Source: Verrucomicrobiota bacterium | GTDB lineage: Bacteria > Verrucomicrobiota > Verrucomicrobiia > Opitutales > Opitutaceae | Length of the DNA: 64,000 nucleotides | Assembly (NCBI GenBank): GCA_019510185.1 | Contig: JAEKKV010000023.1 | Coordinates: 9,366-73,365 of the forward strand | Reading direction: 5' to 3' | Shown: positions 47,764 to 58,887 of the stretch, one piece after another | How the letters are laid out: every line of letters begins with the position of its first letter | Position numbering within the stretch: position 1 is the stretch's first letter | The notes under the pieces: generated by a model | The model's database searches: none | What the model saw: only the letters and a program-made list of their open reading frames with translations | Told to the model about the DNA's origin: nothing | Translations under genes and position numbers: made by a program

Positions 47764-48774
47764 TCAGGCGGATCGTGCGTCCGGCGGGCGCAGGGCAAGC
47801 GGGCAGGGCCGGCCGGCGGCGAAATCATCGACGCTTTTCAACGTGGTTTCCGCGATGTTGCCGAGGGCTTCGTGGGTGAGAAACCCTTGGTGGCCGGTGA
47901 CGAGCACGTTGGGCAGAGCGATCAATCGGGCGAGGGTTTCGTCGGCGAGGGGACCGGCGGAATGGTCTTCGTAGAAGAACCCGGCCTCGTTTTCATAAAC
48001 ATCGAGCCCCAGTCGCCCGAGCTGGCCGCTTTCGATGGCGGCAATGGTGGCGGGGGTGTCGATCAGGCCGCCACGGCTGGTGTTGAGAAGCGTGGCCCCG
48101 GGCTTCATGCGTTCCAGAGTGGTTGCGTTGATGAGGTGGCGGGTGGCGGGGACGAGCGGGCAATGGAGCGAAACGACGTCGGACCGGGCCAACAGTTCGT
48201 CGAGTTCGCAAAAAACGAAACCCGCCTCCCTGGCTTCGTCCGAAGGAAACGGATCGCAGGCGAGCACCCGGCAGCCAAAGCCTTGCATGATCCGGCCGGT
48301 GATCGTTCCGATGCGGCCGGTGCCGACGAGGCCGAAGGTTTTCCCTTCAAGGTCGAAGCCCATCAGCCCATCGAGCGAAAAATCGCCGCGGCGCACCCGT
48401 GCATGGGCCTGGTGGATGCGGCGGTTGAGCGTGAGCAGCAGGGCGACGGTGTGCTCGGCCACGGCATGCGGTGAGTAGCCCGGGACATAGACGACGGTGA
48501 GGCCGAGTGCGGCGGCGGCGACCAGATCCACATGGTTGTAACCAGCCGAGCGCAGCGCGATCAACCGCGTGCCGCCGGCGGCGAGGCGGGCGAGCACGCC
48601 GGCGTCTAGCCGGTCGTTGACGAACGCGCACACCGTTTCGCTACCGTGGGCGAGCCTGGCCGTTTCCGGCGTGAGGCGTTCCTCGTGGAAAGACAGCCGG
48701 TGACCGCGCGCCGCGTTGGCCGCGGTGAAATACCGGCGGTCGTAGGGCTTGGCGCTGAAGACGGCGATGGTCAT
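47764..48774 (-). CDS. ldhA: D-lactate dehydrogenase (2-hydroxyacid dehydrogenase)
   Basis: LRSAGYNHVD, YSPHAVAEH, GTGRIG, NTSRGGL, GLDVYENE and TGHQGFLT. Confidence 0.9.
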   Translation of the reverse strand: MTIAVFSAKPYDRRYFTAANAARGHRLSFHEERLTPETARLAHGSETVCAFVNDRLDAGVLARLAAGGTRLIALRSAGYNHVDLVAAAALGLTVVYVPGYSPHAVAEHTVALLLTLNRRIHQAHARVRRGDFSLDGLMGFDLEGKTFGLVGTGRIGTITGRIMQGFGCRVLACDPFPSDEAREAGFVFCELDELLARSDVVSLHCPLVPATRHLINATTLERMKPGATLLNTSRGGLIDTPATIAAIESGQLGRLGLDVYENEAGFFYEDHSAGPLADETLARLIALPNVLVTGHQGFLTHEALGNIAETTLKSVDDFAAGRPCPLALRPPDARSA

Positions 48775-48878
48775 GACCGGGACGGCGGACGACGGTGGCT
48801 GCGAGTGGATTGCATGCTGGCTGGGCGAAGACTGTTCCGCATTGCGGTCCGGCGTCGAGGCTCTACATTGGCCCTCCC

Positions 48879-56410: not shown

Positions 56411-56412
56411 TC

Positions 56413-58887
56413 ATGAGCACGACCACGATCTTGCCTCCAGAAAGGGACAGCGCCCGCCGGGCGCCGGCGGGAAACCGTTCTGCGTCCAAAGCGGCTTGCA
56501 AACACTGCGGAGCGCCTTCGCCGGCCGGTGATTTTTGCTGCGCGGGCTGCGCCTATGTCCATCGGCTCGTGCATGAGGAGGGGTTGGATGCGTATTACCG
56601 GATCAAGGACGAGGTGACCGTCCCGGCGGATCCGGCGCTGTTACAGCCGAGGGATTATGCATGGCTGGAAACCGCGCAACGCGAGGCGGAAGCGGCGTCG
56701 GATCCCGAGCGGGCGCCGCGTTTGCTGCTGGAGGTTCAGGGCATCTCGTGCGTGGGCTGCGTATGGCTGATCGAGAAAGTGTTCCAGAAACAACCCGGCG
56801 CGGGGCGCATCGAGATGAACGCGCAAACCGGGCAGATGCGGATTTATTGGGAGCGAGGGGAGGGCGCCGCATTCGACGCCACGGCTTTCGCGCGGGCGTT
56901 GCAACGGTTCAACTATCTGGTCGGTCCGGCCGGGGCGGCGACACAGCCCCGTCGCTCCGAAAGCCGGGCGCTCGCGCGGCGCATCGGTTTGTGCACGGCC
57001 TTCGCGATGAACGTGATGTTGTTCACGCTGCCGGTCTATTTCGGGATGGAGCGGACGTTCGCGTATGCGCCGCTTTTCGGAACGCTCTCGATGGCGTTTG
57101 GCACGCTCAGTCTGCTGGCGGGCGGAGGTTATTTTCTCAATCGGGCGGTGCGGGCCCTGCGCGAGGGCGCGGTGCACATCGATCTGCCGATCGCGCTGGG
57201 CATCGTCGGCGCCTACGCGGGGTCGATGCTCGGCTGGCTGGGCGGACGGGAGGAGTATGTTTATTTCGATTTCGTGAGCGCGTTCATCCTGCTGATGCTG
57301 GTGGGACGGTGGGCGCAGGTCGTGGCGGTGGAGGGGAATCGCCGCCGTTTGTTGAGCCGCCAGCCGGTCTCGCCCCGCGTGCGCCTGCTGGGCGCGGATG
57401 GCTCCGCGACGGAGATCGCGCCGGAGCAGTTGCAGGCCGGCCAGCGGTTCGCAGTGGCGATGGGGCACAACGTTCCGGTGGAAGGCAGATTGGAGACGGC
57501 CGAGGCGGCGGTGAGCCTCGCCTGGATCAACGGCGAATCCGAACCGCGCGTGTTTCGCGCCGGGCAACGCGTGCCGGCGGGCGCGCAAAACCTCACCCGG
57601 GGCGAACTTCAGTTGACGGCGACCCAAGCCTGGGATGGCTCGTTGTTGGCCGAGTTGTTGAAGCCGGTGGCGCGGGAGGGTTACCGGCACCGGTTGTTGG
57701 AGCGCGTTATCCAAGGATACCTCGTGGCGGTCATCGGCATCGCGGCGCTGGCGGGTTTGGGTTGGTGGCTGGAGACAGGCGACGGGCTGCGCACCGGGGC
57801 GGTGGTCACGGCGATTTTGGTGGTCTCGTGTCCGTGCGCATTGGGGCTGGCCTTTCCTTTGGCCGACGAAATCGCGACGGTGGCGTTGCGGCGCCGCGGG
57901 GTCTTTGTGCGCGCGGCGGACCTGTGGCCCCGATTGGAGCGCGTGCGGAAGCTGGTCTTCGACAAAACGGGAACCCTGACCCTGGAAATACCGGTGCTGC
58001 TGAATCCCGAGGCGGTCGCCCGGTTGAACGATGACGAGTGGTCGGCGCTGCTCGCGCTCGTGCAGGACAGCGCGCATCCGGTGGGGCGCGCGCTGCACGA
58101 AAGCCTGCTCGCCGGCGGGCGAGGCGCGTTTCCGCTGGCCGGCGAGGTGTGCGAGACGGTCGGCTCGGGAGTGGAGCTGGACGTCTGGTCGCTGGGCCGG
58201 CCCGGCTGGCGTGTCCGCTCGAAACCGTCCGACAACGCAACGCAGCCGGAATCCGTTCACGTAATACATGACAAACTCCCCGGGGACGAACCGGTGGATG
58301 TCGTGCTGGCGTGGGCCGGGGTGGAGGTGGCGCGGTTTCATTTTGCCGATCAGGCGCGGGCGGATGCCCGCGACGAGATCGCGGCGTTGGGCCGGCGCGG
58401 ATTGGAGGCCTATATTTTAAGCGGAGATCGACCGGCGAAGGTCGCCGCGTTGATGGACGCGCTGGGATTGCCGGCGGAGCGCGGGCAGGGCGGATTGTCG
58501 CCGGGCGAAAAGGCCGGCTGGCTGGACACCCATGATGCGGGCCATGCGCTCATGCTGGGCGATGGCGCGAACGACAGCCTGGCGTTCGATCGCGCGCTGT
58601 GCCGCGGCACGCCGGTAATCCATCGGGGCGTGCTCGCGCGGAAGGCGGATTTTTATTATCTCGGGCGTGGGATCGCGGGGATTCGCGCGCTTTTCGAAGT
58701 CAACGACGCCCGCCGTCGGACGCAGCAAACGCTGCTCGTGTTCATGGTGGCCTACAACCTTCTGGCAGTTGGCCTGTCCGTGAGCGGACACATGAATCCG
58801 CTGATCGCGGCGATCTTGATGCCGGTGAGTTCGCTGCTGACGCTCGCGCTCGTGGGCTGGGGCATGCGCGGGGTGACGGCACGCTGA
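56413..58887 (+). CDS. ccoI: Cu-translocating P1B-type ATPase for cbb3 assembly
   Basis: CKHCG...FCCAGC, GISCVGC, CPCALG, DKTGTLT, HP and GDGAND. Confidence 0.93.
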   Translation: MSTTTILPPERDSARRAPAGNRSASKAACKHCGAPSPAGDFCCAGCAYVHRLVHEEGLDAYYRIKDEVTVPADPALLQPRDYAWLETAQREAEAASDPERAPRLLLEVQGISCVGCVWLIEKVFQKQPGAGRIEMNAQTGQMRIYWERGEGAAFDATAFARALQRFNYLVGPAGAATQPRRSESRALARRIGLCTAFAMNVMLFTLPVYFGMERTFAYAPLFGTLSMAFGTLSLLAGGGYFLNRAVRALREGAVHIDLPIALGIVGAYAGSMLGWLGGREEYVYFDFVSAFILLMLVGRWAQVVAVEGNRRRLLSRQPVSPRVRLLGADGSATEIAPEQLQAGQRFAVAMGHNVPVEGRLETAEAAVSLAWINGESEPRVFRAGQRVPAGAQNLTRGELQLTATQAWDGSLLAELLKPVAREGYRHRLLERVIQGYLVAVIGIAALAGLGWWLETGDGLRTGAVVTAILVVSCPCALGLAFPLADEIATVALRRRGVFVRAADLWPRLERVRKLVFDKTGTLTLEIPVLLNPEAVARLNDDEWSALLALVQDSAHPVGRALHESLLAGGRGAFPLAGEVCETVGSGVELDVWSLGRPGWRVRSKPSDNATQPESVHVIHDKLPGDEPVDVVLAWAGVEVARFHFADQARADARDEIAALGRRGLEAYILSGDRPAKVAALMDALGLPAERGQGGLSPGEKAGWLDTHDAGHALMLGDGANDSLAFDRALCRGTPVIHRGVLARKADFYYLGRGIAGIRALFEVNDARRRTQQTLLVFMVAYNLLAVGLSVSGHMNPLIAAILMPVSSLLTLALVGWGMRGVTAR

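Follow-up and report, generated by a model that had tools for sequence, protein, structure and literature searches.

How does a bacterium control its high-affinity oxidase if it encodes no regulator of the FNR family? In textbook accounts, cbb3-type cytochrome c oxidases are placed under the control of FNR, FixK or Anr, or of RegBA, and we know of no account of how microaerobic respiration is controlled in FNR-less phyla such as Verrucomicrobiota. The question is raised by a 64,000-nucleotide stretch of DNA from a Verrucomicrobiota bacterium of the family Opitutaceae (contig JAEKKV010000023.1, positions 9,366 to 73,365; hereafter the window, contig C40 in our numbering), the genome of which measures 3.3 Mb and is 99.5% complete. 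In this window, a gene for a protein joining a PocR sensor domain to an AraC-type DNA-binding domain lies upstream of a cbb3 oxidase (cco) gene cluster. From sequence comparison and predicted structures, on which the whole analysis is based, we propose that the PocR-AraC protein is probably a dedicated activator of a low-oxygen regulon, a role in which it would replace FNR, FixK and Anr in the Opitutales. The predicted relation between the regulator, its operator and its targets is the firmest part of the proposal and very likely holds. Fetched loci are designated L and compared genomes G, each with a number, and "the order" is that of the host unless stated otherwise. The features on which the proposal turns are the following.

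48879-49787, plus strand: PocR-AraC regulator, 302 amino acids (Pfam PocR, HTH_18 and HTH_AraC)
49769-50275, minus strand: small CxC...CxxC protein, 168 amino acids, with cysteines C68, C70, C123 and C126 in its translation
50304-50346, minus strand: tandem box B, half-sites at 50338-50329 and 50317-50308, directed at the gene of the small cysteine protein
50362-50404, plus strand: tandem box A, half-sites ATATGCGCAG (50370-50379) and GTGCGCGCAG (50391-50400), directed at DUF2934-ccoS-ccoNO
51051-53357, plus strand: fused CcoN-CcoO, 768 amino acids (Pfam COX1, E-value 5.5e-112; FixO, E-value 4.3e-79)

The regulator is linked to the cbb3 genes in several families

Linkage was assessed in two samples. 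In the first, PocR and FixO domains were located in genomes of the order and were found 3-4 kb apart in 14 genomes belonging to at least six families; tblastn searches of these loci recovered orthologues that are 49-86% identical to the window regulator and stand beside a whole cco cluster. The second sample comprised 23 genomes with both a cbb3 oxidase and an orthologue, which are linked in 20 of them. Taken together, orthologues (48-86% identity) are located at most 5 kb from ccoNO in 34 of the 41 cbb3-positive genomes sampled. Thus, the synteny of PocR-AraC with cco, which the initial annotation had seen in the window, is conserved. In Opitutaceae, the regulator gene lies upstream of cco in the same direction, and in the other families it is divergent from the cco operon, divergent transcription being the classic arrangement of a regulator and its target.

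In a scan of species representatives, ccoNO was present within the fetched flank in 49 of 80 Opitutaceae loci, and 11 further loci end too early. On the protein tree, the linked state spans the deep branches, and several losses or paralogues are placed later. None of 500 label shuffles reproduced this degree of clustering.

A candidate tandem operator accompanies the regulator

The interval between the regulator and cco contains, in 14 of 14 loci, a tandem direct box of the form ATATGCGCAG-N11-ATATGCGGAG with an exact 21-bp spacing. Its half-site core, ATATGCGNAG, is specific to the regulator's subfamily; ATATGCGNAG to ATATAAANAG is the half-site change that we considered for this core. The architecture, with two direct half-sites and a period of 21 bp, is that of AraC/XylS-type operators, and at all of these loci the box is the predicted site of the regulator. 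Box A of the window has a counterpart in each of the 13 related loci, and boxes A and B stand back to back. The region 50311-50397, singled out in the initial annotation as the place where the regulator should bind, contains conserved tandem boxes of the AraC type, which we predict to be its target.

When scored with a leave-out weight matrix, from which the window and its genus had been excluded, box A (28.4 bits) was the best site in the 3.3-Mb genome and box B (24.0 bits) the second best, compared with a maximum of 15.0 bits in the control, the reversed genome. The half-sites of box A end 41 nt before the ATG of the DUF2934 gene, and in close and distant loci alike the promoter-proximal half-site ends about 30-40 nt before the start codon. 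This position suggests an activator that overlaps the -35 region.

The box follows the orthologue. Among 27 cbb3-positive genomes without an orthologue (17 without any PocR domain and 10 with generic PocR proteins only), none carries it in front of ccoNO; the highest value there is 7.6 bits, within the shuffled range. Conversely, in the f17 family, in which the orthologue is not linked to cco, a box is found upstream of ccoNO in 4 of 5 genomes, with scores of 9.8-21.7 bits.

In the mechanism that we favour, the regulator would bind the ATATGCGCAG-N11-ATATGCGGAG repeat with its 21-bp period, and the overlap of the promoter-proximal half-site with the -35 region would correspond to class II activation as carried out by AraC/XylS-type proteins. 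Box A would drive DUF2934-ccoS-ccoNO(Q)P-ccoG-dsbD2-ccoI, and box B the divergent gene of the small CxC...CxxC protein. The gene for oxygen-independent coproporphyrinogen oxidase (hemN) would be controlled via the same box, in the host genome as well as in its relatives. That this regulator activates high-affinity respiration had been put forward from the window alone; linkage, the box, the co-occurrence of box and regulator and the absence of Crp/Fnr now speak for a functional tie between the regulator and the cbb3 cluster, whereas the DNA binding of the protein, its action as an activator rather than a repressor, its signal and any cofactor are matters that we infer.

No FNR-type regulator is found in the host genome

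The FNR palindrome TTGAT-N4-ATCAA, with up to 2 mismatches allowed, has zero matches in 49700-51050. Across the whole genome, no HTH_Crp_2 domain scores above the Pfam cut-off, the top sub-threshold matches being GntR, LacI and MarR proteins, and the sole match to a cyclic-nucleotide-binding (cNMP-binding) domain lies inside a frame of 663 amino acids, which is not Crp-sized. The PocR-AraC regulator itself contains neither a cNMP-binding-like domain nor HTH_Crp_2. The lack of an FNR box in 50276-50726 and of a Crp/Fnr gene in the window, as reported earlier, is thus confirmed, and the absence of the gene extends to the whole 99.5%-complete genome. Since this genome-wide search yields no Fnr-family protein encoded elsewhere, FNR-independent control in the host is supported.

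A strong Crp/Fnr-type match is present in only about 25 of 151 genomes of the order and in none of the window's genus, and 9 of the 14 linked genomes of the first sample lack a Crp/Fnr-type regulator.

The predicted regulon extends beyond the oxidase

The hemN upstream regions were excluded from matrix training. A box on the same strand precedes hemN in six relatives from three families and scores 19-26 bits there, the null reaching 12.5 at most; together with the host genome, where the hemN box scores 17.8 bits, this makes seven genomes. Furthermore, hemN can be physically joined to the module: in L020 it is located between the regulator and ccoNO, in G084 it comes straight after ccoI, and in G050 it adjoins the regulator. 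No box was found at hemN in G022, where a Crp/Fnr gene adjoins it.

Near close and distant homologues of the regulator that do not adjoin cco, boxes precede genes for Usp proteins and for a fusion of a NirK-like copper oxidase with cytochrome c. Apart from the box evidence, neighbours of homologues include NnrS, NrfA, class II ribonucleotide reductase and phosphoenolpyruvate carboxykinase (PEPCK). Most of these genes are typical targets of FNR, FixK2 or Anr. Because of this regulon content, we consider oxygen limitation the probable physiological signal.

Two further loci show how these genes can be arranged. L024, from a genome without cbb3 (G083), retains the regulator and has two tandem copies of the small cysteine protein gene behind a 28.8-bit box (7837-8822), as well as a back-to-back pair of boxes (14291-14523) between the NirK-like copper oxidase/cytochrome c gene and a Usp-GlnE-like operon. 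In L179, which belongs to another order (G218), a CcoI-like ATPase of 1032 amino acids (43% identical) is immediately followed by a regulator homologue with 41% identity (3395-7533), and ccoNO lies 37 kb away. In addition, two HSP20 genes at 10445-11363 of L009, from the same genus as the window, are divergent from the regulator and separate it from ldhA; small heat-shock genes belong to FixK2-type regulons.

In the host's own genome there are also weaker candidate boxes of 17-23 bits, close to the control maximum of 18 bits, which were not confirmed in relatives. Those at C14:237288 (L043), C19:20215 (L046) and C18:119631 (L044) stand before genes for a class II fructose-bisphosphate aldolase (fba), a GTP-dependent PEPCK (pckG) and a secreted protein of 488 amino acids, respectively. 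Two genes for CxxCxxCC proteins (PF03692, putative zinc or iron chelating), at C19:299904-300179 and C28:196106-196429 (L047 and L048), are found near weak boxes of 19.0 and 18.6 bits. A PEPCK gene also stands beside the regulator homologue in L176.

The regulator and its cysteine signature

The regulator carries the sole PocR domain of the genome (PF10114; E-value 2e-25, 89.7 bits against a Pfam gathering cut-off of 23.9), followed at its C-terminus by an AraC-type double helix-turn-helix (HTH_18, 82.1 bits; HTH_AraC, 58.5 bits). A longer reading frame, from a GTG at 48795, is available, but the orthologues begin at the ATG at 48879. The AlphaFold2 model, with a predicted local distance difference test score (pLDDT) of 95.4, superposes on AraC-family DNA-binding domains with a root-mean-square deviation of 1.3-1.8 A; sequence and fold searches of the PDB matched the AraC half only and retrieved no solved PocR domain. 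With 97.2 bits, the protein falls below the cut-off of 500 of the PocR equivalog model for the pdu/cob regulator (NCBIfam NF047788), and it is surrounded by cco genes instead of pdu or cob. The family to which it belongs is large, comprising 507 clusters at 50% identity (E-value up to 1e-30).

All five cysteines counted in the sensor domain by the initial annotation (in NPFC, CSAC and KCFAGLC) are present, at residues 61, 71, 74, 94 and 99. Their conservation was assessed in 118 full-length representatives (36-74% identity). Four of them form the signature C61-x9-C71-x2-C74-x19-C94, each position being 85-93% conserved, and C99 is kept in just 27% of the representatives. C71 is the only cysteine specific to the subfamily, and its addition creates a CxxC motif. 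The residue after the third cysteine is frequently His in generic paralogues (CHAGL) and Phe in the subfamily of the regulator. The subfamily-specific change is therefore from Cys3(His) to a predicted Cys4 site.

If the signal is oxygen limitation, it could be read directly, by a metal centre held on the four cysteines in the PAS/GAF-like PocR domain; an iron-sulfur cluster is our leading guess. We regard an O2-labile cluster at the Cys4 site as a guess, and one that is more likely wrong than right. Alternatively, the small Cys4 protein might act in this step as a co-sensor or modulator alongside the regulator.

A small cysteine protein is the closest partner of the regulator

In searches with a hidden Markov model, 77 of 105 loci had the gene of the small cysteine protein adjacent to the regulator, among them loci from genomes without cbb3. 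Judged by gene neighbourhood, this protein is the tightest partner of the regulator, closer than the linkage to cco. Its four cysteines (CxC and CxxC) are 86-97% conserved, and its homologues have no Pfam domain and are annotated as "hypothetical protein". In the families outside Opitutaceae, its gene leads the cco operon; the profiles of the Opitutaceae-type and other-family proteins match each other in hhalign with a probability of 95.5% (E-value 1.5e-8). The predicted structure is an all-helical bundle (pLDDT 81.7). A fold search gave weak globin-like matches, with E-values above 0.5, which are insufficient for a fold assignment. Its gene is a predicted target of the box, and the protein itself may act as a co-sensor.

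Organisation of the locus

The remaining features of the locus are listed below.

47764-48774, minus strand: D-2-hydroxyacid dehydrogenase, LdhA/VanH-like, of the D-lactate type (Pfam 2-Hacid_dh_C, E-value 1e-53; NCBIfam VanH/LdhA-type matches below their cut-offs)
50441-50674, plus strand: DUF2934 small protein, the first gene 3' of box A (Pfam DUF2934, E-value 4.8e-10)
50727-51041, plus strand: small membrane protein of the CcoS/FixS type, its tail rich in Cys and His (assigned by position and an N-terminal hydrophobic segment)
53377-53562, plus strand: 61-amino-acid gene product at the CcoQ position (kept in related loci)
53549-54094, plus strand: CcoP-like cytochrome c subunit (NCBIfam ccoP TIGR00782, E-value 4.5e-28, below cut-off; kept in related loci)
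54107-55579, plus strand: CcoG (Pfam Fer4_18 and FixG_C)
55595-56410, plus strand: DsbD_2 membrane protein (Pfam DsbD_2)
56293-58887 (open reading frame), plus strand: CcoI, P1B-type copper ATPase (Pfam E1-E2_ATPase, HMA and ATPase-cat_bd)

CcoN, CcoO (FixO), CcoP, CcoG and CcoI are thus all identified in the cbb3 cluster, the fused CcoNO combining catalytic subunit I with the mono-haem subunit II. CcoH, CcoS and CcoQ have no Pfam or NCBIfam matches in the cluster, and small genes fill the CcoS and CcoQ positions; the one at the CcoS position (zero matches in either database) is kept directly 5' of ccoNO in related loci, and the DUF2934 gene stands where it does in the window in many Opitutaceae loci as well. 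The DsbD_2 protein takes the usual place of ccoH, where it is kept within Opitutaceae, and no DsbD_2 gene was detected in the cco clusters of families beyond Opitutaceae. The regulator gene and that of the 168-amino-acid protein are convergent, their 3' ends overlapping by 19 nt. The order read earlier from the window, with ldhA on the minus strand followed by PocR-AraC and the cco cluster on the plus strand, stands; the genes between the regulator and cco are those of the 168-amino-acid protein and the DUF2934 protein.

One gene has to be removed from the module. The initial annotation had counted ldhA as a member. However, outside the two closest relatives (L049 and L050) ldhA does not adjoin the regulator; in L009 it is 1.5 kb away from it, and no tandem box is present in the gap between the two genes (48775-48878). 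Because its adjacency is limited to the closest relatives and there is no box, we regard ldhA as a bystander and do not count it in the module. Next to ldhA, the minus strand encodes at 47009-47731 a metal-dependent repressor of the DtxR/MntR type (Fe_dep_repress and Fe_dep_repr_C). Since a DtxR/MntR homologue lies directly upstream of PocR-AraC in about 13 Opitutaceae loci, ldhA appears to have been inserted between these two genes.

Points against the proposal and rival explanations

Several observations weigh against the proposal, and some of them favour rival explanations. About 30 close homologues are not located beside cco, and homologues occur in genomes without cbb3, which means that the family extends beyond this oxidase. 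Five of the linked genomes carry a Crp/Fnr-type protein as well, and two-component systems that sense oxygen, such as RegBA or FixLJ, may be alternative controllers. As to the sensor domain, C61, C74 and C94 are also present in generic PocR-AraC paralogues (22-31% identity), and richness in cysteine is consequently for the most part a trait of the PocR family. The view that the protein is Cys-rich and hence a redox sensor is weakened accordingly: three of the cysteines are generic, C99 is poorly conserved, and the subfamily-specific part comes down to C71. In addition, Salmonella PocR is reported to use R51 and D64 in sensing 1,2-propanediol, and no metal is described for it (PMC11264322), which together with the three generic positions means that the cysteines may form a structural site.

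The rival that survives best keeps the same targets and changes the signal: the PocR pocket would bind a small metabolite, for instance a diol or alcohol, or a redox-linked or fermentation product, the cysteines would hold a structural zinc, and oxygen would be read indirectly. The PocR family has been characterised as a sensor of 1,2-propanediol and glycerol with a defined pocket (PMC11264322), and the three family-wide cysteines, with the CHAGL of generic paralogues, suggest a structural Cys3-His site. The weak candidate boxes at the PEPCK and aldolase genes, and the PEPCK gene beside the homologue in L176, also fit a metabolic signal. Nonetheless, cco, hemN, NirK-like, NrfA, NnrS and Usp make up a respiratory low-oxygen set and not the catabolism of a single compound, the subfamily has gained a fourth cysteine (CxxC) and lost the His, and the match to the PocR equivalog is poor (97 bits against a cut-off of 500). 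We consider this rival unlikely.

A second rival makes the Cys4 site a sensor of copper or another thiophilic metal, which would coordinate copper enzymes and copper handling, with cbb3 and its CcoI and CcoG as the main client. Its best case comes from L177 (3902-12938), in a genome of another order (G423), where a three-domain multicopper oxidase and a P-type ATPase flank a homologue with 52% identity, and where one of three boxes precedes a Metal_resist protein followed by rhodanese. P1B-type ATPases likewise adjoin homologues in L036 and L179, and copper is contained in cbb3, the NirK-like protein and NnrS. By contrast, there is no link to copper for hemN, Usp, NrfA, PEPCK and class II ribonucleotide reductase, the copper genes in most loci merely belong to the cco assembly cluster, and the copper sensors known to us are of the CueR, CsoR, CopY and CusRS types. 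This explanation appears quite improbable.

Least probable of the three is that another factor binds the box, with the regulator controlling the small cysteine protein or something else and its adjacency to cco being functionless inherited synteny: the tighter pairing with the small protein and the relocation of some close homologues away from cco would suit it, but the box accompanies the orthologue even where this is unlinked (4 of 5 genomes in f17) and is absent in 27 of 27 genomes without one, a 21-bp direct repeat is, to our knowledge, typical of AraC/XylS operators, and the adjacency has been retained although gene order switched between same-direction and divergent.

Implications

Should the Cys4 PocR domain bind a metal cluster, a sensor type would be added to the short list of bacterial oxygen sensors, and a large family that has not been studied would acquire a function. 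The family of the 168-amino-acid CxC...CxxC protein would be placed in a functional context as well. In the most far-reaching version, a PocR fold with an O2- or nitric oxide-labile Cys4 cluster, fused to an AraC DNA-binding domain, and a globin-like CxC...CxxC partner form a global low-oxygen regulator of FNR-less Verrucomicrobiota. This would represent a new class of oxygen-responsive transcription factors, having an operator of its own and a regulon made up of cco, hemN, Usp and nitrite reductases, and is in our judgement doubtful. In any case, a regulator, an operator sequence of known position, a predicted regulon and a possible partner protein emerge from the analysis, each of them accessible to standard methods. 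In the literature searched, no paper joins PocR with cbb3, or AraC with cbb3 and Verrucomicrobi*; most subscription journals lie outside that search, which makes this weak evidence of novelty.

Comparison with known systems

The putative operator resembles those of AraC, XylS and RhaS, in which a pair of direct half-sites with a spacing of about 21 bp likewise lies immediately upstream of the promoter. The window differs in having its own half-site, ATATGCGNAG, and two back-to-back tandem sites for divergent promoters.

For the sensing step, the closest parallels are NreB and OrpR, described in two reports as proteins in which a PAS-like domain with an iron-sulfur cluster on cysteines controls genes of anaerobic respiration (PMC13478379, PMC8359166). 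Their outputs are a histidine kinase and a sigma-54 activator, and not an AraC domain, and their cysteine spacing is different. The parallel serves as a precedent only, the cluster of the window regulator being hypothetical.

Salmonella PocR, the AraC-family activator of pdu and cob, shares with the window regulator the combination of a PocR sensor and an AraC double helix-turn-helix. Three cysteine positions are common to PocR-domain proteins, a comparison made on paralogues and not on Salmonella PocR itself. The window regulator, however, is not an orthologue of that protein, its predicted targets are respiratory and not those of diol catabolism, and it has a co-conserved Cys4 partner. From generic PocR paralogues it is set apart by the extra cysteine that gives CxxC and by a Phe after the third cysteine, where several of them have His.

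The likeness to FNR, FixK and Anr lies in the target set, which in both cases includes cbb3, its assembly genes and hemN; nitrite-reductase, NnrS and Usp genes, which adjoin PocR-AraC homologues, belong to that set as well. Four cysteines would likewise be available for a possible O2-labile cluster, and the predicted promoter-proximal site overlaps the -35 region. In contrast, the families are unrelated, the regulator having no cNMP-binding fold or HTH_Crp_2, and the operators differ, TTGAT-N4-ATCAA being a palindrome and the box of the regulator a direct repeat with a 21-bp period. Thus, a known regulator architecture would have been recruited to the role of FNR, with a Cys4 signature, an operator and a partner protein of its own.

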